Of a stretch of 64,000 nt of DNA, positions 22,694 to 62,297 are shown piece after piece (position 1 is the first letter of the stretch; each line of letters opens with the position of its first letter). The stretch is from a virus. Location: positions 64,001 through 128,000 of IMG/VR virus record IMGVR_UViG_3300026488_000015; one strand, written 5' to 3'. Position numbers and translations under genes: made by a program. The notes below the pieces were generated by a model. It saw nothing but the letters and a program-made list of their open reading frames with translations. It did not search any database and was not told the DNA's origin.

Positions 22694-22975
22694 TTATAGG
22701 AGATAATGAGGGTGGAATTCTATGAGTATTTTTTTGAATGAGGGGAATTTTATTAGGTTATGCAATGATGTGTATATGTATTCTCCAGTGAATACGCCTT
22801 CGTTTGAGTATTCTTTAGTGTGGAATGAACCCCAAGAGTCTTCGTTTAAGTAGTTTTTAAGGATATTTTCGTATGAGTGGTATTTTATTTCATTCTGCCA
22901 TTTTATAGAGAAAATATGATGGACTCTTCCTTCCAAATCAATCACGAAAGGAAAACCAAAAGAGTCTTTATTCAT
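22694..22975 (-). CDS. Hypothetical protein, C-terminal PHYLL tag
   Basis: ORF track; motif family. Confidence 0.55.
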   Translation of the reverse strand: MNKDSFGFPFVIDLEGRVHHIFSIKWQNEIKYHSYENILKNYLNEDSWGSFHTKEYSNEGVFTGEYIYTSLHNLIKFPSFKKILIEFHPHYLL

Positions 22976-23216
22976 AACGAGATTCGCCGTTCCGTTCTAC
23001 TAGGATAGGTACTGGTGCTATGTCAAAATTGAATGCACAAGTGTCACCACATTTGTTGCAAGTGTATCTTACTAAATCTGTATCAGTACAATCTGCTTGG
23101 TCGTTGAGTGGGTCGCCACATCCGGGGCATTTACATACGCAACCACACTGCTCTAGTATTTTTTCTTCTCTACTCTTCTCTAGGCGGAACAGCTTTCTTA
23201 TGATTCCTAATAACAT
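22968..23216 (-). CDS. Small Zn-ribbon protein
   Basis: CPGC and CNKC. Confidence 0.5.
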   Translation of the reverse strand: MLLGIIRKLFRLEKSREEKILEQCGCVCKCPGCGDPLNDQADCTDTDLVRYTCNKCGDTCAFNFDIAPVPILVERNGESRYE

Positions 23217-23444
23217 ATTTGCCTCCTTCTTTGACTAAATATTTATTTAATATTGTTGTTTCTTGTACTGAAATATTTCTCCAATGGCCACCTTGACTAT
23301 CGTATAAAAATTCTTGGATTGTAGAACATTTCTCGCATATTCTATGTGATGGATAAAAACTATCGTATGTTTCATCAAGATATGTCCTTGAGATTACTTG
23401 ATTTACTTCCACCCATTTATGGAATTGATACCATTTACATTTCA

Positions 23445-23798
23445 TTATTCTAGCCAATCAGATATTAAATCAGTTGTTTTATCTGTATTTTCTGCTTTGA
23501 AATAACAGATTGCCTCTACCGTTGTATTCTCAAATTCTACCTCGATAACGCCTCTAGTATATAAATCAGGCACATCTTCAAATCTATCCAATTCAATAAG
23601 CTGTTCTTCGGTTACTTCGTACAGTTCGCCTTGAATAATATTGCCTTCTTGAGGTCTATCCTCTAAGAAAGGGAAATACCAACGGCTCTTATACATAGGG
23701 TAAGGTACTGTCGTTTCGCAAGGAAACAAGAACTTGCTATGGTTGTAGTGGTTATTTCTGCAACCTTGTTTGAGTGTTCCATATACAAATAATTTCAT
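23445..23798 (-). CDS. Gamma-glutamylcyclotransferase (AIG2-like)
   Basis: LFVYGTLK.G..N, GELYEV, LDRFE, LYTR. Confidence 0.9.
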   Translation of the reverse strand: MKLFVYGTLKQGCRNNHYNHSKFLFPCETTVPYPMYKSRWYFPFLEDRPQEGNIIQGELYEVTEEQLIELDRFEDVPDLYTRGVIEVEFENTTVEAICYFKAENTDKTTDLISDWLE

Positions 23799-23848
23799 TT
23801 TATTCCTTAATTTTTAATATAATATTATAACATAAAGTAGCTTAATGG

Positions 23849-24406
23849 CTACTTTATTTCCGAAAGAATGACTTCATTTACTTTTTTATTGTACTCTGAA
23901 TCAGTCTTGTAGTGTTTTGCTACTATAAATCCATTATAACGGTGTTCTGTCGTGATAGTAAATTTTGAAACATCAGTCATCTTAGCTAATCGTTGTGCTT
24001 CTCCTTTAGGGAAGAAAAAGGTAACAGTTTTATTGCCATCGATTACTGCATCCATATGATACTGTGAACCCATCTGATACACTTTTACTTTTGTTGGTGT
24101 ATGTACTTCTGTGTAATGCTCAAAAATAAAGATTCTAGGAAATAGATAGAATGCTATAGTAAGCACAACAAATGCTATAGATTGCATCATCAATGCTAAA
24201 GCCATATTCGCCTGTTCATCTGTTATATCAAGCATTTGAGCAAAGATAAAGAAAAATGTAGCAAATACCCAAAACACTAAATTAAATCCAATTACACTTA
24301 ACCAGATACTATACGAATCACCTAAATAAATGTATATACCAAGACCTACGAACCATATCAACGGGTACAGACCAAATCTGTATAAATTTTCTATATTTGT
24401 TTTCAT
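23849..24406 (-). CDS. Membrane protein
   Basis: Three N-terminal hydrophobic helices. Confidence 0.6.
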   Translation of the reverse strand: MKTNIENLYRFGLYPLIWFVGLGIYIYLGDSYSIWLSVIGFNLVFWVFATFFFIFAQMLDITDEQANMALALMMQSIAFVVLTIAFYLFPRIFIFEHYTEVHTPTKVKVYQMGSQYHMDAVIDGNKTVTFFFPKGEAQRLAKMTDVSKFTITTEHRYNGFIVAKHYKTDSEYNKKVNEVILSEIK

Positions 24407-24770
24407 CTTCTTCCTTTCTTCCTTTTTGTATTAGCCAATCCACAGAAGCTATTTGCTTCAATAACTATTAAGAGTATCATTAATCCAGTAAATATCGAAC
24501 CTTCTAATAATGACATTTAGTGCTCTCTTATTTCGAAACCAGGGTTAATGACTCTCATTGCATCTTGTAAGTTATCCAGGATTGCTGCTTTTTTATTAAC
24601 TTCTGTTACTAAGGCCAAATCTCTTGGTGAACTGAAACCGTCTTCAGGTACCATATTTTTAATCTCGTGATATAGTTCATTAATCAATCTATAAAGTCGT
24701 TGTTCTGTATCCATCTTTCTATCCTTTGTTTGATATGTAGTATTATAACATAAAATACCTTATAGATACC

Positions 24771-25097
24771 TTAAAGTACTAAATGTGGATTTTCTTTATA
24801 ATAATCTCTTATGTCAAAAGAGAACTCATTCTTAAAGAAATCCTGAAATTCTGGTAGATATTCAGAATATTCATCAAAATATCTATCCGTAAATATTTCT
24901 TGGAATGCCTTCGACATTTCGGTAATAGGACCAGTACCACCAATATCCATTAATTCTATTCTCGAATACCATAGCGAATAGAACCTATTCAATGAAGGAG
25001 ATACAATCAGTTCAAAATCAGGAACATCTGAAACATCATTAGCAAAACATTCTTGTATTAATTTATCGGTCTCTTTTGTTTTGCCTTTAAGAATCAT
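24771..25097 (-). CDS. Hypothetical protein, C-terminal PHLVL tag
   Basis: ORF track; motif family. Confidence 0.55.
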   Translation of the reverse strand: MILKGKTKETDKLIQECFANDVSDVPDFELIVSPSLNRFYSLWYSRIELMDIGGTGPITEMSKAFQEIFTDRYFDEYSEYLPEFQDFFKNEFSFDIRDYYKENPHLVL

Positions 25098-25354: not shown

Positions 25355-26515
25355 TTATAGACCCTCTACGAATTCTTTTGCTTTACCTAAAGAGTTGGTT
25401 TGTTTTTCGATGTGCTCTTTAACCATTTTACCCGCAGTTTGTTCTACATCACGAAATGATGTGTTAAGTGACTTCATAACACCACCAAATAATGGTTCGT
25501 TTCTATATTTTAAAGCGAATTCTTTTCTGTTTTCATCAAAATCTTGGAAATACTTTCTTCTTAGTTCTTTAAAAGCAACCACTTGATGATTATAATAATG
25601 AGAAACTTTTTCTTCCATTTCAATAATCATATCTTTTTTAGGACCTTGTACTAATTGAGCTATAACATCATCGATATTACCATCTAAGATAGTCTTCACT
25701 AAAAGATTCTCTCTAAATGCATCAGGACCAACTAAACCGTGTAATTGGATATAGTGGTCTGTTTTGATTTTTGCCATTTGACCATCTTCAAAAGTAACTA
25801 CCCAACCTTCGATGTTTGCTTGTGAAGTTTCTTTGAGTCTTAATAAACCATCGAGTGCTAGATTTTCATTTGGGAAGATTTTAAAGTCTTCAGTCACATT
25901 AATATTGAAAATATCAGCTAAAGATTTCATTTCTAATTTCTCTAAATAACTTCCATCATTTCTTCTAACTTGTAGTAGTGTCAAAGCATTAGCTACTTCA
26001 TAATTTAGTACAATTTGATTTTCAAATCCAACTAATTCAAAGATTGGAGTAAAATCTCTAATATTACATTCAGTAATAAAATGTTGGAATTCTCTGCTAG
26101 TATCATAGATATTTTGTGCCATTACAGCTTGTTCTGAAATAAATGACATTTTAGATTTAGCTCTAACTTTGCTATTCGGGAACTCAACAAAAGAGATAAC
26201 TGAACCGTCTTCTTTATTTTGTACACGAGCAACTTTCTTACCTTGTAAATCTTCTGGCATCCACCCTAAAGTTTGACCATAATTGAAGAATTTTTGCATT
26301 AAAAGATTTCTTTTCCAAGTGCCATCTGGTTGTTCAATGAATGTTAAACCTCTAAGTTCAAATGCTTCATCATTTGCGAAATCAGAAATTGATGCAAGGC
26401 GATAATCATACATTACTACATTAACACCTTCAACTTCTCGTTCTGCTTTAATAAATGCTTCATTACGAGCAACAATTTCATCACATTCTTGTTTTGTTTT
26501 TAAATAAAATTTCAT
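25355..26515 (-). CDS. rnlA: RNA ligase 1 (T4 RnlA-like)
   Basis: ELRGLTF, KFFN, KEDGS motif I, TPIFEL, EGWVV, KIKT..Y. Confidence 0.9.
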   Translation of the reverse strand: MKFYLKTKQECDEIVARNEAFIKAEREVEGVNVVMYDYRLASISDFANDEAFELRGLTFIEQPDGTWKRNLLMQKFFNYGQTLGWMPEDLQGKKVARVQNKEDGSVISFVEFPNSKVRAKSKMSFISEQAVMAQNIYDTSREFQHFITECNIRDFTPIFELVGFENQIVLNYEVANALTLLQVRRNDGSYLEKLEMKSLADIFNINVTEDFKIFPNENLALDGLLRLKETSQANIEGWVVTFEDGQMAKIKTDHYIQLHGLVGPDAFRENLLVKTILDGNIDDVIAQLVQGPKKDMIIEMEEKVSHYYNHQVVAFKELRRKYFQDFDENRKEFALKYRNEPLFGGVMKSLNTSFRDVEQTAGKMVKEHIEKQTNSLGKAKEFVEGL

Positions 26516-27067: not shown

Positions 27068-27106
27068 CTCTCTTTATATGTAATATTATAACATAAGTAA
27101 CCTTAA
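27068..27106 (-). promoter_or_regulatory. Representative early promoter (TTAAG-N-TATGTTATAAT-ATTACATATAAAGAGAG)
   Basis: Extended -10 TGnTATAAT with TTAAG upstream; followed by AAGGA RBS. Confidence 0.85.
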
Positions 27107-28271: not shown

Positions 28272-30735
28272 TTTAAATTCCTTTTGTCTCTTTATATGTA
28301 ATATTATAACATAAAGAACCTTAGAGCTTTATTAAGAGATTACGGTAACATTTTTCTGTGATTTATATTTTAGTAGTGCTTCGATTATTAGAGGGCTTTT
28401 CTTTGGGTTGATGGATACATTAGTTCTATCTAAAATTAGCACATTATTAACAAAATGAATAATTTCATCAAAGAATACTAGTGAATCAGAACCTAGAGTC
28501 AAATATCTACCTTCTTGGTCAATCTTGAGGTATTCGTATCCTAATGGTAACGATTCTAAAATCTCATCGAATTTTGGGTAGTTTAAGTGGTCTTTAAGAC
28601 CTAATACTAATTCTTTGATATTATCTGGTATCTCGTGTTGCACTTCAAAAGGTTCAACCCAAGAGGTGCTCTTATTATATTTCGCGTGGTCACCGTGTGG
28701 TTTGCCTGTGTATAGAAAGAACCCTTTATGACCAGAGCCGTTTTTTTCTGTTCTAAGAATCCACGAATCGTATTCTTCTAAGTACATAACGGCTACATCT
28801 TCCATTGTAAGAGGGAATGCTATGTTATTTGTGTTTACTTCCATTAGTACACCCCATTTTCTAATTTAATAAGAGGACCTTTGATATTGTATATTTCTAT
28901 ATGAGGCATCTTATCATATTTCCCATTTAGTAGCTCCTTATAATAAATATAAGCTTCTTCAGAATCTAAAAAACATCCTAGTTCTTGATTATTCCGACCA
29001 TCATAAACCCTATACATATTATAAGCTTCTATATCGATTGACATCTGCTCGTAAAATTCTTTGTAACCCATAATTATCCTTTGTTCTCTGTGAAGCTAGT
29101 AAGCTAATATACCCAGCGTGAGGCTATGACTAAGGCTCGTTTCCAGAATCTCGTTCATATCGTAATAAAATATCTGTCTCTATCTCTTTAAGCTTCTCAG
29201 CAATATCGTAATAGCATTCAGAATAGCAATCTTCACATAAATGTAAGTGAGTACCATATTTGTCGTGTTGTTCATTTAATGAAGCTGTAAGGTGGTGTTC
29301 ACCAACCCCTCCACATAAATCGCATTGTAAATCTTTCATTGATTAACCTTTCTAAGCTTCTGTACTTTTTCCCATCGTTCAAAATCTTCTGAATCTAAAG
29401 CCATCGGGTCTTTTTCTTGTACTTTTATTCCAAAATGTCTAGGTTGAAATTGAGCACCTGACATAATAATGGCAACTATAATAGTCCACTCACTCCAACC
29501 TAGAATGATTATGAGGTACAGAAATATACCCCAAATCATTCCTTCATAAAGCACTGTGTACAATAAGAAGTAAAATAATCTAGTTGAGTCTTTCATTAGA
29601 GGTCCTCCAAAATATTATCTACATTTGCAAAGAATACGGTGTTATAAGAACCATCGTATCCCTCGAATGTAACATAAGATGTACTATCTTCTATTTCAAT
29701 GTCTTCAATGGTTAAAACGCAACCTAACGAAAACTGCTCTTTCATTCTTTTTTGGTCGTTTGCGTAACCATTATTAGGGAATGCAAAGACTACCCTACTA
29801 CCCGCTTCAGAATATATATCCATCACGGGTCTAGTACCTATAATAGTGTTTGGTATTTTGTCTTCTATTGTGACTTCATCAACGGGGTCAAACGAAATAT
29901 TCAGCTGTACCCGAGTACCAACCATATCCACTTCATAAATATCTAACTCATTTAATCTTGATTCTGCTTGGGCAATAATAATTTCTTTTCTCGTATGTAG
30001 TCTAGCTCTACTAATGTTAGCACCGAACTCGGTGCTGCTGTTAATATACGATACCAAATAAGGGTAATTATTCTCGCCCTTTTTCTTTAAATAGTAGTTT
30101 TTCATAGTTTTCCTTATACAAAAAATGCCATCTGAAGAGCCAGAAGCTCATCACTGGTTAATGGTTTAATATTGCTCTTTGTACCTTTACTGAATACATA
30201 AACAGAATTCCTAGTACTGATAGAAATCTCGTAATAGTGGCGTGAAACTTCGTTGTACTCTATTTTTTCTATTGTAGATGTACTATATCTACCGTGTCGC
30301 AAATCAAAATTGCAATCAGTAGCATCGAATGTAAAACTAGCAGTCATATCGATATGTAATTTACATTCTTTACCTACGATTTCATCAGCATTAGAATTTG
30401 TTGTGCTTAGTAATGTTGTGGTCATTATTTTTCCTTTTCTCTTTATATGTAATATTATAACACAAAGTAGCTTAAACCTTCTTTTTAAGTATCATTTGGT
30501 TCTCTCCAAGTGCCAAAATTATATGTCTCACCATTAAATGGCTTCCATAAATCAAAATATAGTATTTTTGTTTGTGTTTTATTCCAACATCTGATTTGTG
30601 TATCGGTGTGCTCGATAAACTCTCTTATCTGATAATGAGTTTTATGCCATTCATTTTTTCTAACAAATATTAACATTATAATTCCTTTTCTCTCTTTATA
30701 TGTAATATTATAACATACTAAAGATAAGAGCCACC

Positions 30736-31551
30736 TTAAAGCAACATTGCTGGTGCTTTCTTACAAACTCGGTCAAAATCAAGATTGATAACATCTTTAA
30801 TCTTATCTATATAATTCAAGCCCATTTTCTCAAAAGATACTAATAGATTGCTTAGATATTTTTGTCTGAATGCTAGTGCTGATATTCTATCTGTAAAAAT
30901 ATAAACAGGCTGTCTATAATTTATTTTTGAAGAAGGTGTGGATAACGATATTGTTTCTTTACCTGATTCAGTAAATACTTTTAATGCCGTTACTGAATCG
31001 GATTGACCTTGAATAAACGAACCAGTAGCCTTATATACATCAAAACGCCATTCTGAAGGAACGGAGAGTGAGTTCCATTTATATATAGCACCAGGCATAA
31101 CATAATATGTTTCGCCTCTTTTAACATCATCGAAGATATTTTCTACCATATTTTCTGCATCTTTAAATAATGAATAATCATAACCAATATTCAGCGTCTT
31201 AAAAAGATGTCTAGGTATATCAAAGACCGTAGTTATTTCTGTGTTTTCTTTCATCTTATCTTTCATATACATTTCATCTTCTGTGGTGCTAATTTTATAT
31301 TGTTTCTTTAATTGTATAATACGATTCATTTGACCTACACTAGAAGTGTGGTTAATATGAATGAATAGTTCAATGAACTTCTTCCATTCAGATGTCTTAG
31401 CAGTGAGCTTTGGTGTCCTAGGTTTCGAACCTAAAGGGTACATTCTAAAACCACAACATTCAGCCCCACCTTTATTTGATTTGAGACAATACAAACATAT
31501 AGATTTACTATGTGATGCTTTAGGTTTTCTCAATTCTTCTCTATATTTCAT
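30736..31551 (-). CDS. Hypothetical protein with N-terminal Cys cluster and C-terminal PAMLL tag
   Basis: CLYC...CCG; motif family. Confidence 0.5.
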   Translation of the reverse strand: MKYREELRKPKASHSKSICLYCLKSNKGGAECCGFRMYPLGSKPRTPKLTAKTSEWKKFIELFIHINHTSSVGQMNRIIQLKKQYKISTTEDEMYMKDKMKENTEITTVFDIPRHLFKTLNIGYDYSLFKDAENMVENIFDDVKRGETYYVMPGAIYKWNSLSVPSEWRFDVYKATGSFIQGQSDSVTALKVFTESGKETISLSTPSSKINYRQPVYIFTDRISALAFRQKYLSNLLVSFEKMGLNYIDKIKDVINLDFDRVCKKAPAMLL

Positions 31552-51550: not shown

Positions 51551-54500
51551 ATGATAACTAGAAGTTTTAACAAAATTGATTTAGATTTAGCAGTAGTAGA
51601 AGCAGAGATTGCTGGTGTTGTAATCTCAACAAACAAAATTACATCGGTGCAGAGTAATTCAACTCTTACTTTGGAAGGTAATGGTACTGGAAAAATAACA
51701 CTCAACGATGATACAAAAGTAAACGGGAGCCTGAGCACTTCTAAGGATGTCGTATTCCATAGTGACTTTGCTTTAATAGCTGATGATTCTTCTGGAGAAT
51801 TTTCTAATAGAAGTGGTACAAACATAGACCATATTTGGCACAATGATACTACCAATTCTTGGAATTTTGTTTCTGATGGTACTTATAGAAAAGATGGAAT
51901 TTCAGGTTCAAGTACTTTAAGAGCTCAACACTTAGCTCTTGGTTCACATCTTACTGTAAATGGAAATACAGTTCTTGGTAATGCTAATACCGATTCAACA
52001 ACGGCTAGAGGTACAGTAACATTATCTGATGCAGGAAAATTGACTAATATCAAGGGAACATTAAATGTGGACCAAGCAGTTTCTTTCGATTCAACATTAA
52101 ATGTTGCTAGTACCACGACTTTAAATTCAACTCTTACTGTAAATGGTAGCACGACTTTAAAATCAAATCTTACTGTAAATGGGAATACAGTTCTTGGTAA
52201 TGCTAATACAGATACTTCAGTAATTCGTGGAACTCTTACATTATCTGATTTAGACAAACTTACTACTATCAAAGGTTCTTTAAGAATTAATCAAGACCTT
52301 GTTATCGATAAAGCACTAAATGTTACGAACGATTTAGTTGTTGGTGATTTCAATGATTCAAACTCTAATATTACAGTTCTAGCTGGGGAAACGAAAATAG
52401 CACAAATATCTGCATACGGGTCTAGTCAAGGTACTGGAATTGTATATGTAGGACAAAGCAGTTCTCACGGTGGTGGTATCGTTTATAATGGCGATGACAA
52501 CCCTAATTTACCTTTCAGTACTGATAGTATATCAATGTTTAGAAGAAGTTCAGGTGTAGATTACGAGATTATACACGCAAGTCACGGTTCAAGTCGAGTT
52601 TTATTCAATGATAGCATTACTATTGAAGGTACATCTGATTCATCAAGCACTATTACTGGTTCATTCCAGACTAAAGGTGGTGTAGGAATTGCTAAGAAGT
52701 TATATGTTGGTACTTCTGTTTATGCACCGACTTATTACGATTTAAACAATACTGGATATTATGGTAACTTTGCTAGTACAAGTAGAATGAATTTACTAAA
52801 TCTTACGACTCTTAATGTTTATGGTATTACTACTCTTGGTGATGCAGTTACTGATTCGACTAGAATTCGTGGTACTGTTACTATAAGTGATAATACGAAA
52901 TTAACTAAGATTGAAGGTAAACTTACAGTCGATGAAGCAACTATTTTAAGTTCTACTCTTAATGTTAATGGTAATACTACTCTTGGTAATGCAGTTACTG
53001 ATTCAACGACTATTCGTGGTACTGTTACTATCGGTGATGATACGAAAAATACTAGAATTGGTGGTACACTTTCAGTTGATGAAACTGCTACATTCTCTGG
53101 TATCATAAATGCTAACGCTGGAATCAAACAAGATAATTTCTCTATTCTTAATGGTTCTGATACTTGGTTAAGAACTTCTGGGAATACTGGTTGGTATTCT
53201 GCCACTCACGGTGGTGGTATGTATATGACTGATACTACCTGGGTTCAGACTTATGCAGATAAAGGTCTATCAGGTAGAGTACTAAGAAGTACTGTTGCAC
53301 AAGGAACAGCACCTCTTGTTGTTACTAGTACGACTAAAGTTGCCAAACTAAATGTCGATTATCTTGATGGTCAAGATATTTCATATTATAGAAATGCTAC
53401 AAACTTGAATGCAGGTACAATATCTGATGCAAGATTACCAAATATTATCACTTCTGATATAAAAGGTATCAAGTATGTGGATAGTAGTAATGAAATGACA
53501 TTAGCACAAGGCTTCGTTGGTGGTAGATTGTACTTAAATTATAGAGGAGCAACTTCTGCTATTACAGAATTATACATAGCTAATGGTCGTGGTGCTACTA
53601 CAACTAATGTTATAGCAAGACAATACACATCTAATGTTGCACAAGGAACAGCACCTCTTATTGTTGCTAGTTCAACTAAAGTAACGAACTTGAATGCTGA
53701 TTATCTTGATGGTCAGACTTTGACATCTGCAGGGACAGCAAATACAGTTGTCGGTCGTGATGGTTCGGGCGATATAAATGCTAGATTATTCAAGAGTACT
53801 TACGGTACAACATCATCATTAGCAGCAACTGCAGATATTTGTTTCAGAAATAGCACTTCAGATAATTATTTAAGATTCGTAGACCACGCAGGAATAATTT
53901 CTTGGATTGGTAAAGTAAACGATTCACAAAAACTTGATAATCTCGATTCTACACAATTTTTAAGAAGCGATACAGCAGATACATACACTTCATTAAGTGG
54001 GGGTAGACTCACAGCAACTGGTACGGGTAACAACTATACTAATGGTGGAATAGAAGTGCGTTCATCGGGTAGTGCTATACCAACAATCGGTTTTCATAAA
54101 CCAGGTGCTTTCGCTGGAGAACTACAACTAAGAGCTAACAACGAATTTTACTTCCGTAATAATGGCGATACTGGAAATGCAAATGTAACTGCAGAGGTGT
54201 TTAGAGGTAAAGCAACAAGTGCTAACTACGCCGATGTCGCAGAAAATTATCTTTCTGATTCAGTACAAGTTCCAGGTACTGTAATGGGTATAGGAGGAGA
54301 AAACGAGATTGCAGTATGGACTGAAGGAATGCCTCTAGCAGGTGTTGTAAGTACTAATCCAGCTCTTATTATGAATAACGAAGATTCTATTAAGGATAAT
54401 GAATTGTATCTTGAAATAGCACTTAAAGGAAAGATTCCTTGTTTCATAGAAGGAGAAGCTAAGAAAGGACAATATTTAGTCCCTTCAAGTAATGGTAAAG

Positions 54501-54589
54501 CAAAAGTTTCTACTACATACAATCCAGAATTTAATATAGGTGTATGCATAGAAGATTCCGTAAACGGGACTGTAATGGTTAAAGTCTAA
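51551..54589 (+). CDS. Tail fibre / receptor-binding protein with C-terminal intramolecular chaperone-like (peptidase G2-type) domain
   Basis: G/T/S/N-rich beta repeats (LTVNGNTVLGNANTD, VAQGTAPL..S.TKV..LN.DYLDG), C-terminal YADVAENY...GVVSTNPA...ALKGKIPC; TATAAATA at 51517-51524. Confidence 0.8.
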   Translation: MITRSFNKIDLDLAVVEAEIAGVVISTNKITSVQSNSTLTLEGNGTGKITLNDDTKVNGSLSTSKDVVFHSDFALIADDSSGEFSNRSGTNIDHIWHNDTTNSWNFVSDGTYRKDGISGSSTLRAQHLALGSHLTVNGNTVLGNANTDSTTARGTVTLSDAGKLTNIKGTLNVDQAVSFDSTLNVASTTTLNSTLTVNGSTTLKSNLTVNGNTVLGNANTDTSVIRGTLTLSDLDKLTTIKGSLRINQDLVIDKALNVTNDLVVGDFNDSNSNITVLAGETKIAQISAYGSSQGTGIVYVGQSSSHGGGIVYNGDDNPNLPFSTDSISMFRRSSGVDYEIIHASHGSSRVLFNDSITIEGTSDSSSTITGSFQTKGGVGIAKKLYVGTSVYAPTYYDLNNTGYYGNFASTSRMNLLNLTTLNVYGITTLGDAVTDSTRIRGTVTISDNTKLTKIEGKLTVDEATILSSTLNVNGNTTLGNAVTDSTTIRGTVTIGDDTKNTRIGGTLSVDETATFSGIINANAGIKQDNFSILNGSDTWLRTSGNTGWYSATHGGGMYMTDTTWVQTYADKGLSGRVLRSTVAQGTAPLVVTSTTKVAKLNVDYLDGQDISYYRNATNLNAGTISDARLPNIITSDIKGIKYVDSSNEMTLAQGFVGGRLYLNYRGATSAITELYIANGRGATTTNVIARQYTSNVAQGTAPLIVASSTKVTNLNADYLDGQTLTSAGTANTVVGRDGSGDINARLFKSTYGTTSSLAATADICFRNSTSDNYLRFVDHAGIISWIGKVNDSQKLDNLDSTQFLRSDTADTYTSLSGGRLTATGTGNNYTNGGIEVRSSGSAIPTIGFHKPGAFAGELQLRANNEFYFRNNGDTGNANVTAEVFRGKATSANYADVAENYLSDSVQVPGTVMGIGGENEIAVWTEGMPLAGVVSTNPALIMNNEDSIKDNELYLEIALKGKIPCFIEGEAKKGQYLVPSSNGKAKVSTTYNPEFNIGVCIEDSVNGTVMVKV

Positions 54590-55611
54590 GTAAGAAAACT
54601 TAGCACTACTTTATTCATAAACTCTCTATCTGATTTCTCAGGTAGAGTAGTCCTCAACATAAGTTCATCAACTCTATCTAAAGTATCTCGTACTTCATCA
54701 AGAGCATCATCTACATCGACACGGCCTTCTTTGACATCTTTCAATCTCTCTGCTTTTGTGAGAGGAAATTTAAGAAAGTTGGTGGTAAGAAGTTCTTCAA
54801 CCTCTACAGCTACTCTAAGAGCGTGAGATAAAGCTTTAAAGTCTGTTTTTGATTCAGTCTTAGCAACAGTTTTTGTTCTGTTACCAAAACCTTCATATAA
54901 TTTCTTAACTCTCTCAAGCATATACAAGAAAGTAACATTTCCTTCGTACATTTTACCAAGGACAGAAAAATACTCACATTCAGTATGTTCACCAAGACCA
55001 CGAGAGTTAGGTGCCATAACGAACTTAACATATTTGTATCCTCTTGTAATAACTTTCAAATCATCAAATCTATCACTAAGTTTTGTATCAGGTGAACCTT
55101 GTGCCCAGCCATCTAGTGCTTTTACAAGTTTATCTAGCTCTGCATATCTATCACCTTTGACACCGAATTTCTTCGTTTGTCCGACAGCATATCCAACAAA
55201 TTTCTTCATATTTCTATTTTGGAATTTTGTGTGATTATCTTTCATTACTTTAGTAAATTCAGGTACTTCGTAAACGACTGTATCCTTTCTAAACATAGAG
55301 TAAAGTAAATCTACTGCACCCGTTTCAGAACCTTCGAGTAAATCCATAAATTTGTATGGAGAATATCCATCTAAATCTACATCATCAGCACCATTCTTTT
55401 CTTTAGTGTCTTTACCAACTTTAAGAAATTCTACATCTTTTTTCAATAGAACATCTTCTTTACTTGGAGCGAACAAAAATTTATAATCAGTATCAGAATT
55501 AACATTATCTGTACCGTATAATTTTGAACCACTAAGAGTCACATATAGAACCCTAACATTGTGTTTTTCTTCTAGTCCTCTGAGGACCTCTTTTAGTTTT
55601 TCGTTTGTCAT
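54586..55611 (-). CDS. Pol-beta superfamily nucleotidyltransferase (T4 NrdC.11-like)
   Basis: GSKLYGTDNVNSDTDYK (GS..DxD), FVGYA, DFKALSHALR, LP...D; start likely MTNEK at 55611. Confidence 0.85.
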   Translation of the reverse strand: MTNEKLKEVLRGLEEKHNVRVLYVTLSGSKLYGTDNVNSDTDYKFLFAPSKEDVLLKKDVEFLKVGKDTKEKNGADDVDLDGYSPYKFMDLLEGSETGAVDLLYSMFRKDTVVYEVPEFTKVMKDNHTKFQNRNMKKFVGYAVGQTKKFGVKGDRYAELDKLVKALDGWAQGSPDTKLSDRFDDLKVITRGYKYVKFVMAPNSRGLGEHTECEYFSVLGKMYEGNVTFLYMLERVKKLYEGFGNRTKTVAKTESKTDFKALSHALRVAVEVEELLTTNFLKFPLTKAERLKDVKEGRVDVDDALDEVRDTLDRVDELMLRTTLPEKSDREFMNKVVLSFLT

Positions 55612-55720
55612 TTTATGACCTTTATTTTGATTTTCCACCAATCAATTTACGGTATTAATAACCGAATAAAGTATCTCTCTTTATATGTAATATTATAACA
55701 TAAGTAACCTTAAAACCTTC

Positions 55721-56236
55721 TTAATCTAGTAAATCAGCATATTTACCTAGTTTCTTTAATTTCACGCCTTCTAAAAACTCTTTGATGAATAGCTTGAAGT
55801 TATTGGAATCCCATCCACTGTATTGCATAGCTTGTTCTAATATTTTTGGGTTGCTTAGAGCTATTTCAGCTGTCTTACGGAATTTGTCGTGGTGAAGGTT
55901 AGCAATAGCGTGTCTATTCAATTCGTACATCAAATCATATTTACCAGTGAATTCTTTTATTCTTGGTAAAATAATCTCTAATGCCTCATAATTACCTAGT
56001 TCAATTGCTGTTTTTATAATCTGATTGAAATTTTGTGAGTACTCATAACCTTTAAGATTACTGACCAGTTTAACTGCCTTTACATTATTCGTTTGGATTA
56101 TTCTGCGTATAACCTCATCTTCATAAGGTATTTTGTTTTTTAAAAGTCCCTTGATTTCTTTATCAAGATTCCTTCCACCTGGTCCCATTGTATCTAAATC
56201 CCACCAATCTGTTACTTTTTCGTTCATATCCAACAC
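55721..56236 (-). CDS. Degenerate ankyrin-like protein with GKYADLL tag
   Basis: IIKTAIELGNYEALEIIL; late promoter at 56249-56256. Confidence 0.6.
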   Translation of the reverse strand: MLDMNEKVTDWWDLDTMGPGGRNLDKEIKGLLKNKIPYEDEVIRRIIQTNNVKAVKLVSNLKGYEYSQNFNQIIKTAIELGNYEALEIILPRIKEFTGKYDLMYELNRHAIANLHHDKFRKTAEIALSNPKILEQAMQYSGWDSNNFKLFIKEFLEGVKLKKLGKYADLLD

Positions 56237-56251
56237 CTCGTTTAATAATAT

Positions 56252-56503
56252 TTATAAGAATAAGTGAGGTGCCAGTTCTTTAGCTTCTTCTAAAGATTTA
56301 AAATCGTGTTTAATGTTGTTGGATTCCATTTTGTAGTTTTCTATCAGCTCGTAATCGCCTGAAGCACTATGGATGACTAAAACATCATCTAAGGTATATC
56401 GTTCCGTGTCTTCATCGTATCCGAGGACTTCGGCAAAGAATCTGAATTCGGCTCTATCGTCCTCTTTGTAATCCACATAAACGATAGCACCTATCCCATA
56501 CAT
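56252..56503 (-). CDS. Hypothetical protein, C-terminal PHLFL tag
   Basis: Motif family. Confidence 0.5.
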   Translation of the reverse strand: MYGIGAIVYVDYKEDDRAEFRFFAEVLGYDEDTERYTLDDVLVIHSASGDYELIENYKMESNNIKHDFKSLEEAKELAPHLFL

Positions 56504-56505
56504 TT

Positions 56506-56979
56506 TTAGCTCTTCGAGAATAAATGAGGGTTATTTTTCTTCATTGAATCCCACGAGTGTTTCGCAGCATCTGTAAGCTCAACAGCTTCTTCAAGCTCGT
56601 ACTCTTCAGTTCTATCGTTATCATATGGTTTAATCATAACAGGCGTACCTGATGCTAAATCCACGATACCCATAATGTCAAAAATATCTAATGAGCGGTA
56701 ATAAGCCTCACCGTCAAAACCCGTAACGATATAAATCGTGTCGTTATCTACATTGTAATAGCTGTCATCTAGCGACTGGCCTTCGATGTCTAATACCATC
56801 ATTCCTTCAGACTGCTCTAAAACATCTTCTGGTAGTGGTTTATCCCATCGGTCTTCTGGTGTTAAAATTAATCTGAATGGTATCCCAGCATCTAAATAAG
56901 TTGCTACTAGCATAAACATTTGGTCATCTATCACTTCTTTTACCATTTCCGGGTAGTCTGTTTGTGGGGCTTTCATCAT
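56506..56979 (-). CDS. Putative SspB-fold protein (protease adaptor-like)
   Basis: By-eye alignment to the SspB core: LDAGIPFRLIL / LPE..L....MMVLDI / DNDTIYIVTGFDG / SLDIFDIMGIVD..SG, then an acidic linker and short tail. Confidence 0.45.
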   Translation of the reverse strand: MMKAPQTDYPEMVKEVIDDQMFMLVATYLDAGIPFRLILTPEDRWDKPLPEDVLEQSEGMMVLDIEGQSLDDSYYNVDNDTIYIVTGFDGEAYYRSLDIFDIMGIVDLASGTPVMIKPYDNDRTEEYELEEAVELTDAAKHSWDSMKKNNPHLFSKS

Positions 56980-57638
56980 TACATCCTTTGTTTTGTTTTA
57001 AATCTTCTATACATAGATAATCTACTAATATCTATTGTAGTTAATATTTTTCTTACACCACAAAAATCGTTATCTTGTGGTTTAGGGAACATATAATCTC
57101 GCGTGGCTTTCTCTACTTCATCTAAAAATTGATATTCTCCATCTACCCAAGCATAATCTTTTGTGACTAAATCATTGCTATACACTTTAACATCACTAAA
57201 ATTATCCAGCATATAATTTAAGCAAGATATTTCTTGTTTAGTTTGGAGTACTTCAAGAGGAGCTATTCTTCTCATATATAATAATATTTCCTCAGCGTCG
57301 AACTCCTTAACTGGTGCTACGCACGAATTAAAATCGTTCATATCACCCGCTTCAGCGCAAATAACATAATCATCTGCAATATTAGCAAAGTTGTGTATAA
57401 CAATGATATTAATAGCAAGATTCAATTCATAAAGCAACTCTAAGAATAGCATATTCTTATCTTGGTCGTAAGACATATTGATATAAGCGTCTTGTTTAAT
57501 ATTCAGCTGATTGCCGATATAGGTTTTATTGTCAAACTTACGCCTATTTGTACAGACAGCAGGCAATGAAAGTGTGTCCGTAAAAAAATCAATATCTGTA
57601 TTGCAATCGTTTATAAACATATAAAGCGTTGGTTTCAT
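56979..57638 (-). CDS. Hypothetical protein
   Basis: 219 aa ORF in the operon. Confidence 0.5.
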   Translation of the reverse strand: MKPTLYMFINDCNTDIDFFTDTLSLPAVCTNRRKFDNKTYIGNQLNIKQDAYINMSYDQDKNMLFLELLYELNLAINIIVIHNFANIADDYVICAEAGDMNDFNSCVAPVKEFDAEEILLYMRRIAPLEVLQTKQEISCLNYMLDNFSDVKVYSNDLVTKDYAWVDGEYQFLDEVEKATRDYMFPKPQDNDFCGVRKILTTIDISRLSMYRRFKTKQRM

Positions 57639-57645
57639 ATTTACT

Positions 57646-58059
57646 TTACATCCTTAAAATTTTTGTTCGTTCGTTGAAATAAAAGACAATATCGTCCATT
57701 ATTTTTTGTTGATTCTTAGATGTTACTACACCGTCATCGATTCTGACCCAGCTGTAAGAGAAAATCTCCTCCGGGTCAGCACTAATACTAATTTCTTTAT
57801 CAGTAAAACTTATAAGGAATATACCTACATCTTTACGGGAACCTTTTTGGAAAAAGTAATCACCAAGATATGACTGTGCTACTACAATTCCTGATTCTTC
57901 TTCGAATTCACGAACTGCACAGTCCTCAATGCTTTCTCCTTCTTCAATCTTTCCCTTGAAAAAATTGTAGTCACCTATTCTTCCTGTTTTATTTAATAGG
58001 ACATAAACACCGTCCTCTCTAATCTGATAAGGACAAATACCATAAGAAAATTCTTTCAT
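57646..58059 (-). CDS. Nudix hydrolase
   Basis: Nudix box GKIEEGESIEDCAVREFEEESG. Confidence 0.92.
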   Translation of the reverse strand: MKEFSYGICPYQIREDGVYVLLNKTGRIGDYNFFKGKIEEGESIEDCAVREFEEESGIVVAQSYLGDYFFQKGSRKDVGIFLISFTDKEISISADPEEIFSYSWVRIDDGVVTSKNQQKIMDDIVFYFNERTKILRM

Positions 58060-58597
58060 ATTTTTCTCCTTCTTGTATTATAACACTCTTTTACTTAATT
58101 TTATTCTAGCTGTCGATACTGCAGTTTGTTATATCTTGTGGTATTTCTGTTACTGGTTTAGCTGTCATAATATCAAACAGCATCTTCTCAGCAAAATCAT
58201 TGAGATTTGTATCGATTTTTACTGTTTTTACTATATTGAGCACATTCGTTGTTAATCCTGCTATACTGCAGTTAAGATGCAATTCAGGTTCTATTTTTTC
58301 TATTTTTTTCAGTAAAGCTTGAGGTAATGTCGTGCTAGTTAGTTCCATTATACCATCAACATATATGTCCCACATACCTATGGTATCTGTTTGTGCTACC
58401 ACCACCTCTTTAGAGAATGATACATAACCTTCTGGTGTTGTATTATCATAAACTAAATGATACATATTAAAATTACAATAAACGGGTACTGTGGCTCTGT
58501 AGCATATCTGTTTAAATACACTAAAATTTAGTACCTTGCTAGTTTCAAGATATATACCTTGAAATCCCGATACTACTACGCTCTTAGAGCTTAACAT

Positions 58598-58771
58598 TTA
58601 CTTTTTCTTAGGTAAAGCTAAGTAGAAACCTGCAAGACCGAGAACAGCACCAGATAGTAATCCACCTGCAAGTAATACACCAGTAACACCTACGCCAACA
58701 CCTACTTTTAATGGAGTGTTCTCCATACCTTTGTCGAATAACTCTTTTACTTTTGTTTTATCTATTTTCAT
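58598..58771 (-). CDS. Small glycine-rich membrane peptide (57 aa; not in the ORF track)
   Basis: MKIDKTKVKELFDKGMENTPLKVGVGVGVTGVLLAGGLLSGAVLGLAGFYLALPKKK; AAGGA RBS and early promoter at about 58805. Confidence 0.6.
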   Translation of the reverse strand: MKIDKTKVKELFDKGMENTPLKVGVGVGVTGVLLAGGLLSGAVLGLAGFYLALPKKK

Positions 58772-58838
58772 CTTTTAATTCCTTTGTTTTGTTTAATGTG
58801 TACTATTATAACACACTTATACTTAATCTCTTCTTAAA

Positions 58839-60207
58839 TTACAGCAATAAATGAGGTTTTTCGTCCAAGTAATCTTGGAACTCCATTGATTTGTATATTC
58901 GTTCTTTGGGGTTGTCGTGAGTGTACTTATTTCTATAATTGCTTATTATGCTATCTGAAGCTTCTTCTTCGGATGAGAATCTTGAAGCTAAATTAGCCAT
59001 ATTATATGCTACACCATTATAAGAAACAAATCCACCTTGTGCTTCATCGTAAATATCTTTTGGTATAGATAGTACATCTAAGAATGCTAAATGTTTTACA
59101 CTATCTAGCTCCCATTTGTAAAATTTGTACACTCTCGTAGCTGTATTTTCCAATAATCCACCTTCGTTATGTAGAGACATTTCCCAGCACTCATACTTTT
59201 TGAATCTCATATAAACCATCCTGGAAATGTAGACCTAAAATCTTCTGTGTCTTTTTCTGATAACAAAGTGGGTGTACTGAATATTAAAGCATCACTTTCG
59301 CCCTCATCATTAATATTCAGTATTTCTCCACGAAAGGTACCAGATTGCCCTTTCGTTTTATTTGATGTATATGATTCGATTACACCATACAGCCGTCCAT
59401 CGCCAATGTCAGCTAGGTTGGCTAGAGTCTTATCGTATAACGGGTACAGAATCACTACCCTACCTATACAAGATTCGTTAGCCTTCATTAAAATCTGAAA
59501 AGTCATATCGTTCCTTTATAGAAAAATGTGAGGGTGGTTATCGATGTGGGGGTTCAACCACCTTAAGGTTTTCGTTAATTCCCCTTGCATTGTCTGTTTT
59601 GTTTTGTTACCTGATTCTAATTCTGAATGCTCAGAAACATTCTGGTAATAGGGTGTATCTAACAGCTCTTGGAGATATTTGGCTCTCTGAATACTAGAAT
59701 CTATTTTAGCCTCTAATGAGGTCCCGTAAATATCTGTCCACGACCAACCCAACCTATCTCTCTGTATTCGTTCCTTAAGGAATTCTTCGGTACCAGAGAA
59801 ATATTGCTCGAGGACTTTTTTCTCTTTATTCATTCTAACGGCAAACATTACAGAAACCAATGTGGATAACGAGCTTTCATTTCATTAGAGCTATCGTGAC
59901 CTAGGACAGAATACTCGTTATTCCACATATAGTGGGTATAATTTTCGTTTCTCTCTATACTCGTGTATGAGTGTGTACTAGTTAATTTCGGTTGACCGAA
60001 ATCTATCGAGCCGTTAAGCAAAACACCAGAAAGACTATTATTATCTCTAACGGTTTGAATTAAGGCATAAAGAACATTATCTTTACACCAAACACCCTCA
60101 AGGTTGCTTATTTTTCCTTGTTCATTCATATTGTTATTGAAGATAAGTATCTCACCTACCTTATGTTTATCTCTGTATCCATCTTTTACATATATTGTGA
60201 ACTGCAT
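58839..60207 (-). CDS. Four tandem hypothetical genes (58839-59219, 59207-59506, 59516-59860, 59848-60207), each ending in the P-x-x-hydrophobic-hydrophobic tag
   Basis: Tails PHLLL, PGWFI, PHIFL, PHWFL. Confidence 0.6.
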
Positions 60208-60208
60208 A

Positions 60209-61519
60209 CTAATCCTTCAGGTCGATAAGGTATCTTTTTTGTCTTGGGTATGATTGTACCTGAGAACCTTCATTCATTTTTGTCGCCGATAACCAGAAGA
60301 TAGGTGCTTTTGGTAATGCTTTCCAAGAAGATAGTTCTTCTATATATAAATCTGTAATAAACATAATAGCATTAAACTTCATTCTATTTTCGTGAATATA
60401 ATCAATACCAGCTTCCATATAAGTACCACCACAACCATTTCTCTCGAATGAAAAATCTTTAGCACTAAAATCAGTAACAGCAGAAACTTGCGTATCAACT
60501 TGAACAACTTTTAATGTCGTGTTTGTCATTTCGCAAATATGTCTAATCTCATTGAGAGGTACTAAGATTTCCTCATTTGACATTGAACCTGAAGTATCAA
60601 CTAAAACGATTAACTCGAAAGTCGTATCTTTTGTTTTACCTCTCAAATCCATACGACCAGGCATTCTACGGTCACGACGCTTGATAGTCAATCTCTTATT
60701 TGCCTTCTTGTTACCTACAAGTTTTTTCAACTCTTTTTTCCAGTTCACTTGAGCTTTTCGTTTGAATAAATCCAACATACTAGCGATGTCCCCAGGTAGA
60801 TTACCTTTCGATTTACTGATAGCACTTTCAAGCATATCACTCGTGATACTATCCATAATTTCTTGAGCTTCTTCTGAAATATCTCCCCATTGGTGAACAC
60901 CGTCTGGTCCATCACCTAGAATAGGATTCCCATCAGCATCTAAAGGTTGCCCGTTCTCATCGACATTACCACTCTCTATAGCATCTTTAATAGCTTGAGC
61001 GAGTGCTTTCTGTTTCTCTTTCTTCTCTTCTTTTTGGTCTTGATAATCTTGGTCTTCATCTAATAATCTGTAATACTGTTCGGTATTCAGCTTAGAAGGA
61101 AAATTGTAATCTCGGTAATCAACACAACCTTTTGGTAAATGAGTCAAGACCTGATTAATGGCCATATCCATAGCTATATTAGCTTGTTCGTGGTCTTCAA
61201 AATCTTTTCTTACAGTCAAGTGTCGATACATAATATGCAACATTTCGTGCTTGATAACATCGATTCGTTCTCTATCTGATAAATCTTCAAAGAAGAATGG
61301 GTTAATCATTAGGTTGTATGCACTGTTACTAAACGATACACCTGCAGTAGGTAAAGCATTTGACATTCGTACCTTACATTTAGCAATCAAGTGAGCATAA
61401 AAGTTATTTCCTGAAACAGTATCAGTAAACATAGCAACGATACTTTTTTCGAATGCATCACGATTAAATACCTTTACTTCTTTTTCTTCTTTTTCATCTT
61501 CTTTTGGTGTCTCGTTCAT
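60209..61519 (-). CDS. Metallopeptidase-like (HExxH) plus vWA domain protein (DUF2201-type)
   Basis: PTAGV, HEMLH, NIAMD.AIN, VNWKKEL, VDTSGSMS MIDAS, GGT, TD. Confidence 0.88.
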   Translation of the reverse strand: MNETPKEDEKEEKEVKVFNRDAFEKSIVAMFTDTVSGNNFYAHLIAKCKVRMSNALPTAGVSFSNSAYNLMINPFFFEDLSDRERIDVIKHEMLHIMYRHLTVRKDFEDHEQANIAMDMAINQVLTHLPKGCVDYRDYNFPSKLNTEQYYRLLDEDQDYQDQKEEKKEKQKALAQAIKDAIESGNVDENGQPLDADGNPILGDGPDGVHQWGDISEEAQEIMDSITSDMLESAISKSKGNLPGDIASMLDLFKRKAQVNWKKELKKLVGNKKANKRLTIKRRDRRMPGRMDLRGKTKDTTFELIVLVDTSGSMSNEEILVPLNEIRHICEMTNTTLKVVQVDTQVSAVTDFSAKDFSFERNGCGGTYMEAGIDYIHENRMKFNAIMFITDLYIEELSSWKALPKAPIFWLSATKMNEGSQVQSYPRQKRYLIDLKD

Positions 61520-61572
61520 ATTTGTATCCTTTTCTTTATATACAGTATTATAACATAAATAAGCTTAAAGCT

Positions 61573-61890
61573 TTATAAAATAGAGTGAGGATTGTCTTCG
61601 ATGTACTGTAAGAATTCAGCTGATTTATGAATCATATTATATTTAATACCTATGACCTCTTCTGCTGTCTTGTATCCTTGGATGTATGACCAGACAGCTA
61701 ATGTTGCATCATCTTTTGATTCATAGAATAAACCATAATCTCGTTTTGTCATTAATTTCACTTGGTATAGGCCATTGTAGGTTGAAACGGCTACTGGTTT
61801 TTTGAATTCATCTACTGCGTTCTGATTGGTCATTTCTGCTTCTTGAAGAAAGACATTCAGTTCATTGGTGCATTCCCATTTGTATCGCAT
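61573..61890 (-). CDS. Hypothetical protein, C-terminal PHSIL tag
   Basis: Motif family. Confidence 0.5.
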   Translation of the reverse strand: MRYKWECTNELNVFLQEAEMTNQNAVDEFKKPVAVSTYNGLYQVKLMTKRDYGLFYESKDDATLAVWSYIQGYKTAEEVIGIKYNMIHKSAEFLQYIEDNPHSIL

Positions 61891-61907
61891 CGTTTCTCCT
61901 TGTTTCT

Positions 61908-62297
61908 TTATATGAATAAATGTGGGTCTGATTCTTTGAGTGCCTCTACTTCTACATTACTAAAAGTGTAACGAAATATAATCGTTTCTGTGTACGGGTC
62001 GAGAACATCTGCAGAGGGAGTAGCCTGTTCGTTTAATAATGTTAAATGTTTTGCTAGAGGGAAATCTTCGTGCAATTGGTGATATGCACGGCGACTGGCT
62101 TCTTCACGCTGTTCCACTGAGCAATCCGTAACGATACTGACATTATAGGCTAAGAATCTTATATATGCTTTATCATTAAATATCACATTTGTAGTACTAC
62201 GGTTTTTTGAGAAATATCTTTTTTCTAAATAAATAAATTCACTTAGAGATTGAGGTTTTTCTTCTATGAAACCATACGGGTTTATAGCGTCAAGCAT
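61908..62297 (-). CDS. Hypothetical protein, C-terminal PHLFI tag
   Basis: Motif family. Confidence 0.5.
   Translation of the reverse strand: MLDAINPYGFIEEKPQSLSEFIYLEKRYFSKNRSTTNVIFNDKAYIRFLAYNVSIVTDCSVEQREEASRRAYHQLHEDFPLAKHLTLLNEQATPSADVLDPYTETIIFRYTFSNVEVEALKESDPHLFI

Follow-up and report, generated by a model that had tools for sequence, protein, structure and literature searches.

A shared C-terminal tail on unrelated small proteins of an uncultured T4-family phage, and its candidate readers

Why do dozens of small phage proteins with unrelated bodies end in the same few residues, and which partner would read such an ending? The question is raised by a stretch of 64,000 nucleotides (the window; bases 64001-128000 of the 146,525-bp IMG/VR record IMGVR_UViG_3300026488_000015), in which many short genes encode a C-terminal tail with proline at position -5 and a hydrophobic end. 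The same phage was found on a 331,651-bp ENA metagenome contig (ERZ27262635:k141_314747), where the record occupies positions 79068-225592. About 175 kb of DNA was read, comprising the record, about 10 kb past its right end and about 18 kb past its left end.

The tail and the proteins that carry it

An earlier note on this DNA had listed fifteen such tails and two extended variants, in which further residues follow the motif. All are present, on minus-strand open reading frames (ORFs) whose stops fall at the coordinates below. The two neighbouring genes that are discussed as candidate readers are included in the list, which uses positions of the window.

22694-22975, minus strand: tagged ORF, 93 amino acids, ends EFHPHYLL; one chance-level Pfam match (E value 0.084)
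24771-25097, minus strand: tagged ORF, 108 amino acids, ends KENPHLVL
30736-31551, minus strand: tagged ORF, 271 amino acids, ends KKAPAMLL (a Pro-Ala variant)
35047-35361, minus strand: tagged ORF, at most 104 amino acids (start uncertain), ends ADKPHYLL
42319-42555, minus strand: tagged ORF, 78 amino acids, ends ENYPADML
44015-44458, minus strand: tagged ORF, 147 amino acids, ends NTRPDLML; homologue on contig L176 ends KQPHKFL
44468-44743, minus strand: tagged ORF, 91 amino acids, ends EHYPHLIL
50942-51319, minus strand: tagged ORF, 125 amino acids, ends ENNPAEFL
56252-56503, minus strand: tagged ORF, 83 amino acids, ends ELAPHLFL; orthologue on contig L179 ends EVSPHLFI
56506-56979, minus strand: extended variant, 157 amino acids, NNPHLF followed by SKS; L179 orthologue ends NNPALFKK
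58839-59219, minus strand: tagged ORF, 126 amino acids, ends DEKPHLLL; L179 orthologue ends EENPHLLL
59207-59506, minus strand: tagged ORF, 99 amino acids, ends STFPGWFI; tail kept in the L179, L176 and L177 orthologues
59516-59860, minus strand: tagged ORF, 114 amino acids, ends DNHPHIFL
59848-60207, minus strand: tagged ORF, 119 amino acids, ends ARYPHWFL; directly downstream of the DUF2201 gene
60209-61519, minus strand: DUF2201 protein, 436 amino acids, zincin metallopeptidase fused to a vWA domain; candidate reader
61573-61890, minus strand: tagged ORF, 105 amino acids, ends EDNPHSIL; directly upstream of the DUF2201 gene, orthologous position tagged in four relatives
61908-62297, minus strand: tagged ORF, 129 amino acids, ends ESDPHLFI; subject of alignment A5 and of a structure model
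62282-63109, minus strand: extended variant, 275 amino acids, NNPGDFL followed by CLTL; between the MoxR and DUF2201 genes, ending kept in L179
63131-64000, minus strand: MoxR-type AAA+ ATPase (Pfam AAA_5), 379 amino acids, continuing to genome position 128270; candidate partner of the reader

A plus-strand ORF at 44480-44767 overlaps the ORF at 44468-44743; the minus-strand ORF, which ends in EHYPHLIL, is the likelier gene.

The enrichment check that the earlier note had proposed showed the tail to be strongly over-represented at C-termini. Among the 231 ORFs of the complete 146,525-bp record, 26 end in P-x-x-[LIVMFWY]-[LIVMF]; the frequency of this pattern inside the record's proteins would predict 0.63. 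The narrower form, PH-x followed by two hydrophobic residues, closes 17 proteins and is found at none of about 45,000 internal positions. Three of the 406 discarded ORFs have a P-x-x-hydrophobic-hydrophobic end, and one of these is the genuine 44468 gene. About 14 further tagged ORFs lie in the record beyond the window and five more in the flanking DNA of the ENA contig. With the flanking DNA included, 36 of 280 ORFs are tagged, if both extended variants and a single THWFL ending are counted and the pattern also allows alanine, glycine or glutamine at -2. The tag is carried by about one protein in eight, a higher count than the one first noted.

The conserved element covers about 13 residues, with hydrophobic residues at -13, -10 and -9, glutamate or aspartate at -8 and -7, proline at -5, histidine at -4 and leucine at -3. 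In a logo of 31 tails, proline stands at -5 in 29 and histidine at -4 in 21, the other residues at -4 being mainly alanine, aspartate or glycine; the end is phenylalanine or leucine at -2 and leucine at -1. Almost every copy has hydrophobic residues at its last three positions, and the motif is placed strictly at the terminus.

A motif at the end of a gene could also be a nucleic-acid signal that is translated by accident, such as a terminator, the ribosome binding site of the next gene or a recombination site, and several tagged genes do extend over the start codon of the following gene, with overlaps of 4-16 bases. The motif, however, keeps a fixed distance from the stop codon in a single frame, and its synonymous codons vary freely between copies (CCT, CCA or CCC for proline; CAT or CAC for histidine; TTA, CTT, CTA, CTG or ATA at the leucine positions). 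The DNA after the tagged stop codons shows no conservation between copies, and the amino acids persist in relatives whose overall identity is 31-46%. Variable codons and unconserved downstream DNA show that selection acts on the protein and not on the DNA, and a nucleic-acid origin of the motif is scarcely credible.

Tagged genes are confined to certain parts of the genome. The earlier note had placed none in the structural block, and no tagged ORF is indeed found between about 12 kb and about 86 kb of the record, a stretch that holds a radical-SAM island and the structural genes. The accessory regions that the tagged genes occupy also hold the 31 copies in the record of a highly conserved extended -10 promoter, TATGTTATAATAYTACATAT, which is found on the minus strand only and in accessory regions only (examples on the minus strand of the window are at 24733-24752, 27076-27095, 30698-30717 and 61538-61557). 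Their position in regions with this sigma-70-like promoter suggests that the tagged genes are early genes.

The bodies in front of the tail had been described in the earlier note as unrelated, and at the sequence level they are. All-against-all BLASTP found two related pairs among 31 tagged proteins, and phmmer, run after removal of the last eight residues, one related pair among 36. The proteins are 70-275 amino acids long, and Pfam and PHROG scans gave no credible family for those scanned. Two tagged proteins match phrog_2251 weakly (E value about 1e-5 to 1e-4), and there is a marginal AAA_33 match on the 275-residue extended variant besides a few chance-level matches. Two tagged proteins were modelled with AlphaFold2. 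The first model (predicted local distance difference test score, pLDDT, 79) is a five-stranded, SH3-like small beta barrel, the nearest PDB matches of which are domains of the Tudor, PWWP and KOW type, none reaching an E value of 0.001. The second, of the 61908 ORF (pLDDT 68), has an alpha+beta body with a helix at 115-123 ahead of the tail, and a fold search with it gave no significant match. The two bodies are thus predicted to differ in secondary structure, and both models end in a short helix, the proline and a turn. A tagged protein of 168 amino acids outside the window (L013:8746-9252, minus strand), which ends in EKPHLGL, opens with MASILSQSEIDALL, and this N-terminus (LSQSEIDALL) resembles the CheY-binding peptide of FliM.

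These results bear on the possibility that the tagged proteins are one much-diverged family with the tail as its best-conserved structural element. Many tagged genes stand in tandem arrays, residual similarity is seen in the two BLASTP pairs, and several proteins have, as judged by eye only, a loose [S/D]-x-E-E-A helix cap about 30-45 residues before the end. Set against this are the single pair related by phmmer without the tail, the spread in length, the contrast between an all-beta SH3-like barrel and an alpha+beta fold in the models, the FliM-like peptide at the start of one protein, and the weak phrog_2251 matches, which describe a small domain with the tail appended. Common descent of the tagged proteins is accordingly improbable.

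Conservation of the tail in related phages

Sequence markers (tail sheath, baseplate wedge and large terminase) place the phage as a large, uncultured and distant member of the T4 family. Its terminase is 38% identical to that of Vibrio phage phiKT1024 and 31-33% identical to those of the Campylobacter CP220-like phages, and its nearest cultured relatives infect Campylobacter and Vibrio. The record has a G+C content of about 33% and carries nearly all genes on the minus strand. Megablast against the phages in GenBank gave no match, and the relatives in IMG/VR are distant (24-31% identity for DUF2201 and 31% for the terminase).

Related contigs were located through homologues of the DUF2201 gene and are short contigs of uncultured phages. 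On L179, L176, L177 and L180, the DUF2201 proteins of which are 84, 73, 52 and 44% identical to that of the phage, the small flanking genes carry the same type of tail. Among 22 orthologue pairs at 33-75% identity the tail is kept in 16. The other six pairs are four conserved extended variants, one with a change from proline to alanine and one with a different extended ending (FPHWF-YDD). In the extended variants NNPHLF-SKS is paired with NNPALF-KK or PQYF-EDDE, and PGDFL-CLTL with PGDFL-CLTL or PGAVL-KLIL. The proline, histidine, leucine and phenylalanine of the tail are invariant in four orthologues of the 61908 family at 31-46% identity (alignment A5), and in the 61573 family (alignment A4) the only invariant residues are Met1, one alanine and the proline of the tail. 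A search of a representative library of 1.84 billion proteins with one tagged query gave six small homologues at 40-80% identity, all of which end in P-[H/D/E]-L-x-[L/I]. When a profile of 29 tails was searched against 5.8 billion proteins, only the phage's own proteins were returned, and when IMG/VR was scanned at the DNA level for PHL-[F/L]-x-stop, the matches listed were isolated ones of the kind expected by chance.

The cultured Vibrio phage phiKT1024 (OM249648.1, 191,289 bp) has a version of its own. There, 74 of 334 ORFs end in [H/Y]-P-E-x-[F/L]-I, against 1.4 expected, and the tagged proteins have a median length of 107 amino acids. Proline again stands at -5, while glutamate replaces histidine at -4 and isoleucine replaces leucine at the end. 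BLASTP in phiKT1024 for relatives of the phage's tagged proteins found none, and the tag therefore belongs to a system and not to particular gene families. The two phages do share DUF2201 (34% identity), MoxR (36%), ClpP (42%) and a classical-clade AAA+ ATPase (32%). Vibrio phages pv27 and phiTY18 were matched through the terminase only, and the motif is not mentioned in the genome paper of phiTY18, a close relative of phiKT1024.

The tag is real, modular, under selection at the protein level and conserved as a system across the clade. As judged from these genomes, the tail system is common to a clade of phages, with versions of the tag that are specific to the lineage.

Candidate readers of the tail

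The earlier note had proposed that one hub receives all the tails. The shared tag itself stands, and its strict C-terminal place, the selection on the protein, its retention in orthologues and its lineage-specific, genome-wide versions make a single hub likely. The MoxR ATPase and the DUF2201 protein form, on genomic evidence, the best candidate pair for that hub. The DUF2201 protein matches Pfam DUF2201_N (64 bits) and DUF2201 (45.5 bits). It has the zincin motif HEMLH at residues 91-95 and the vWA metal-binding (MIDAS) motif DTSGS at residues 308-312, and the residues of both sites (HExxH and DxSxS-T-D) are intact and are invariant in 88 homologues. Its own C-terminus, RYLIDLKD, is untagged. 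The MoxR gene (genome 127131-128270) lies about 1.6 kb away, and eight of the eleven genes around DUF2201 are tagged. No paper on the function of DUF2201 was found in the literature searched, which was mostly outside subscription journals.

This pair, which the earlier note had named, gains support from comparison: in relatives with few tags these flank or overlap DUF2201. Contig L177 has five clear and two degenerate tails, all within 5 kb around DUF2201, and none in about 33 other ORFs, and on L180 the sole tagged gene overlaps the start codon of DUF2201. Phages with more distant DUF2201 genes (G001, G002, L015, L018 and L183) have tails that differ from the proline tail and that are found beside the same genes:

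G001 (IMGVR_UViG_3300017917_004998), 7566-11925 and 50528-58917: twelve proteins ending D-L-x-x-[I/L]-G-F, four of which flank MoxR/DUF2201
L183, 3664-7035 and 9517-10374: five or six proteins that end in N-Y-S-E-Y-L-L and lie to either side of DUF2201
G002 and L018: one DLGDLGF protein each, adjoining the vWA gene
L015: two neighbours with a tail of the DLGDLGF/IGF type

The DLGDLGF-tailed neighbours have no Pfam family, and the 275-residue protein between MoxR and DUF2201 has no detectable homology to them. Campylobacter phage F336 has no MoxR, DUF2201 or ClpP and no tail family, and possesses a homologue of the classical-clade AAA+ ATPase.

The reading that we tentatively prefer, without calling it probable, is that the tail is a short linear docking motif, an address tag, with MoxR and DUF2201 as its likeliest reader. 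The tail would form a short, amphipathic, acidic helix that is stopped by the proline at -5 and followed by His-Leu-Phe-Leu and a free carboxylate. Carried by dozens of small accessory proteins that evolve fast and are unrelated, it would allow one reader to handle the whole group. The vWA-peptidase protein would capture the tail, after which the MoxR ring would remodel the client in an ATP-driven manner, or the zincin would cut it at or near the tail, or both. Clients would thereby be switched on, switched off or cleared at a set time. The identity of the reader and the events after binding are what we infer; the tag is what we observe.

Several points weigh against MoxR and DUF2201 as the reader. 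In this phage and in phiKT1024 the tags are spread over all accessory regions, and their adjacency to MoxR/DUF2201 is there what chance would give. The adjacency argument comes from a few contigs with sparse tags, the tail patterns in the other phages were defined after looking, and contigs L178, L181 and L182 have DUF2201 and no tail family within 8-10 kb of it. In a sample of few lineages, DUF2201 and MoxR residues did not co-vary with the leucine or isoleucine that closes the tail beyond the level of controls: the scan gave one DUF2201 column (Tyr98/Asn, beside HExxH), and two control partitions gave one and zero columns. The early timing of the tagged genes is drawn from promoters only. 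Finally, this phage and phiKT1024 both combine the tag with ClpP and the classical-clade AAA+ ATPase, and presence or absence therefore fails to separate the candidate readers.

This last point leads to the main rival, in which the tail would serve as a degron for a protease of the Clp type or another AAA+ protease. In bacteria, ClpXP, ClpAP, FtsH and Tsp recognise non-polar C-termini with a free carboxylate as signals for degradation, the ssrA tag studied by Sauer and colleagues being an example, and the tail resembles the ssrA tag in its non-polar last residues, free carboxylate and strictly terminal place. It would be read by the phage ClpP together with host ClpX or ClpA, or by the following ATPase of the phage:

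L009:9770-11050, minus strand: classical-clade AAA+ ATPase, nearest solved relatives Cdc48, AFG2 and PAN; ends TKIGML

The outcome would be a short programmed lifetime for accessory proteins, with recycling of their amino acids. The phage ClpP is full and its catalytic serine, histidine and aspartate are intact (171 bits; L013:17251-17892), and SmpB (160 bits; L013:7214-7660) and an M17 leucyl aminopeptidase (L154:17242-18603) are also encoded. The Cdc48/PAN-like ATPase has the C-terminus K-I-G-[M/L]-[L/I], which is conserved in a Campylobacter phage homologue, and phiKT1024 likewise has ClpP and a classical AAA+ ATPase. We observe in addition that the I-G-[M/L]-[L/I] end resembles the IGF/IGL loops by which Clp ATPases dock on ClpP. 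On the other side, the strict proline at -5 and the histidine or glutamate at -4 are unlike known Clp degrons, and F336 has its AAA+ homologue (38% identity, C-terminus KKIGLI) without any tails. SmpB does not track the tag, being absent in phiKT1024 with its 74 tails and present in the tail-poor G002, and G001 has a tail family and no ClpP match in a record that is 52% complete. A search for transfer-messenger RNA (tmRNA) and tRNA found none in the roughly 175 kb of the phage, and tmRNA was not found in phiKT1024 either. A degron is on balance somewhat unlikely, and it overlaps with the preferred reading in that the MoxR ring and the zincin could themselves be the protease that reads the tag.

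The tagged proteins may instead be localised or assembled by some other partner, such as RNA polymerase, a membrane or nucleoid component of the host, or a phage protein encoded in the remaining 155 kb or so of the contig. About 175 of 331.6 kb was read, the domain scans took in part of the ORFs, and the evidence for MoxR/DUF2201 is circumstantial, all of which leaves room for such a partner. A reader in the host would, however, have to be shared by widely differing hosts unless the tag had evolved along with it, and the tag does differ between phages (histidine at -4 against glutamate in the Vibrio phage, terminal leucine against isoleucine). A tag that changes genome-wide between phages fits a phage-encoded reader better, and another partner is a possible but doubtful alternative. 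In a further reading the tagged proteins would be adaptors: each variable body would bind a different host target, the protein with the FliM-like CheY-binding peptide being an example of such a body, and the tail would plug both into the MoxR/vWA-zincin or Clp machine, where the target would be remodelled or destroyed. We consider this decidedly unlikely.

The sliding clamp, which the earlier note had named among possible hubs, is disfavoured. In T4 the proteins gp43, gp33 and gp55 bind the clamp by an interchangeable acidic and hydrophobic C-terminus (PMC2988020), the tails read being SLDFLFG, TLDFLL and SLDFLYEAND. Since the phage belongs to the wider T4 family, as indicated by its terminase, gp44 clamp loader, gp46/47 and gp55 homologue, and since its tails are likewise acidic (glutamate or aspartate at -8 and -7) and hydrophobic (-3 to -1), the tagged proteins might ride the phage clamp through the same epitope. 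The genes expected to bind a clamp, however, have another ending:

L156:16638-19562: DNA polymerase, found on the ENA contig, ends QIDEDEW
L009:18767-20005: gp55 homologue, ends EDISEEW
L009:14621-15007 and L009:15001-15297: two small proteins of the replication cluster, between gp46 and gp44, ending DLDEW and TEDEW

The polymerase of phiKT1024 ends in ESLDDW, and in that phage the acidic-tryptophan tail is found on several other proteins as well. Among the replication enzymes recognised in the record, none has the tag. Because the canonical clamp clients carry the acidic-tryptophan tail (DEDEW, SEEW, LDEW, EDEW) and none carries the proline tail, the latter is probably not clamp-binding, a role that we hold to be very improbable for it; the acidic-tryptophan tail is likely to be the clamp-binding epitope of the clade. 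No gp33 homologue was found, and no gp45-family clamp gene was matched in the DNA read. A gene of 189 amino acids upstream of gp44 was considered as the clamp; its product belongs to no Pfam family and, judged by eye, looks helical.

Neighbouring features and known systems

The phage encodes, besides the gp44 clamp loader, gp46/47 and the gp55 homologue, a ribonucleotide reductase, NAMPT, UvsX, a DnaB-type helicase and a family-B DNA polymerase of 974 amino acids, and among further accessory genes ThyX and an Apyc1-like protein. A second shared tail, K-K-[L/I]-G-K-Y-A-D-L-L with an optional GDD or DS, closes six proteins. Two of these have ankyrin-repeat matches, and BLASTP relates some of the others over their C-terminal parts; the second tail could be another address tag or mark a family of paralogues. 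Two other groups of genes were observed, one for RNA repair and nucleotides (Rnl1-type and Rnl2-type RNA ligases, an NAD kinase, a CCA/poly(A) polymerase head domain and RlaP) and one of two large proteins, a giant fibre-like protein and another, which have repeated segments at 46-63% identity and the C-terminus in common.

14126-14674, 47361-47870, 47870-48193, 48193-49158 and 55721-56236, minus strand, and L154:15465-15875: ORFs with the second shared tail
25355-26515, 32014-33165, 38626-39381, 40127-41158 and 54586-55641: RNA repair and nucleotide genes
51551-54589, plus strand: protein of 1012 amino acids, resembling the giant fibre-like protein of 2296 amino acids at genome 37465-44355

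The closest known systems are the vWA-MoxR peptide-processing modules and the clamp-binding tails of T4. Beside vWA-MoxR systems, zincin peptidases and small, rapidly diverging proteins with a conserved C-terminal peptide have been described (Kaur, Burroughs, Iyer and Aravind 2020, PMC7159879), and vWA domains were proposed to capture the client peptide for MoxR (PMC7159879). The present locus agrees with these modules in having MoxR AAA+ and vWA genes together, a zincin-like metallopeptidase, which is here fused to the vWA domain, and adjacent small diverging proteins with a conserved C-terminal peptide, the tail being among their few invariant positions. It differs in setting, their modules being bacterial conflict systems and this one belonging to a lytic T4-like phage; in scale, with at least 36 clients (74 in the Vibrio phage) genome-wide instead of one or a few precursors; and in motif, theirs being FxSxx, RxD or acidic and this one helix-P-H-L-F-L. 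No AP-ATPase/TPR effector of such modules was found among the phage proteins scanned, and release of the C-terminal peptide by the peptidase is putative both there and here. In the NorQ-NorD pair, an extreme C-terminus docks on the MoxR ring at its post-sensor-1 loops, and the MIDAS site of NorQ-NorD and CbbQ-CbbO is regarded as the likely holder of the client (PMC13036017). The docking C-terminus is in that case the vWA partner's own and serves a single client enzyme, whereas here the vWA partner, DUF2201, ends in RYLIDLKD, without the tag.

The T4 clamp tails are likewise short, interchangeable, acidic and hydrophobic tails on unrelated proteins that meet at one hub, in the same phage family; they differ in having only three clients, in replication and late transcription, and those clients carry the acidic-tryptophan tail here. 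During translation tmRNA appends the ssrA tag, which closes with small residues, LAA for example. With the XB tail of SspB it resembles the present tail as a non-polar, free-carboxylate C-terminal peptide with an adaptor-binding stretch before it and one machine, ClpXP, behind it, while here the tail is encoded in the gene, ends in LFL and has a fixed Pro-His, and tmRNA was not found. In the ankyrin/PRANC (F-box-like) proteins of poxviruses, variable target-binding bodies are linked to a degradation hub of the host through one conserved C-terminal element. In those eukaryotic viruses the element is a folded domain, about 30-50 residues long, on a single repeat family; here it is a tail of 13 residues on unrelated bodies. 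No paper that combines MoxR, phage and a C-terminal motif was found, most subscription journals lying outside the search. The tag is undescribed in the literature searched and differs from the nearest known systems most of all in scale, with 13-22% of the proteome tagged, and also in motif and setting.

If one reader serves the tag, an eighth to a fifth of the phage's proteins, and with them most of the 'dark matter' accessory genes of such large phages, could be approached by experiment as one group. The tail would then serve as a handle for pull-downs, for the tagging of reporters and for switching many phage functions together. Should the tagged proteins be adaptors, the system would amount to a phage-encoded, PROTAC-like takeover of the host that engages 13-22% of the proteome, and the clade that has it counts a cultured Vibrio phage among its members. 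The cultured Vibrio phages phiKT1024, pv27 and phiTY18 make the question testable, the homologous tag having been verified in phiKT1024. If MoxR and DUF2201 are the reader, a function would be given to a widespread and uncharacterised pair of phage genes, and the idea of peptide capture by vWA-MoxR systems would extend from bacterial conflict systems to viruses.

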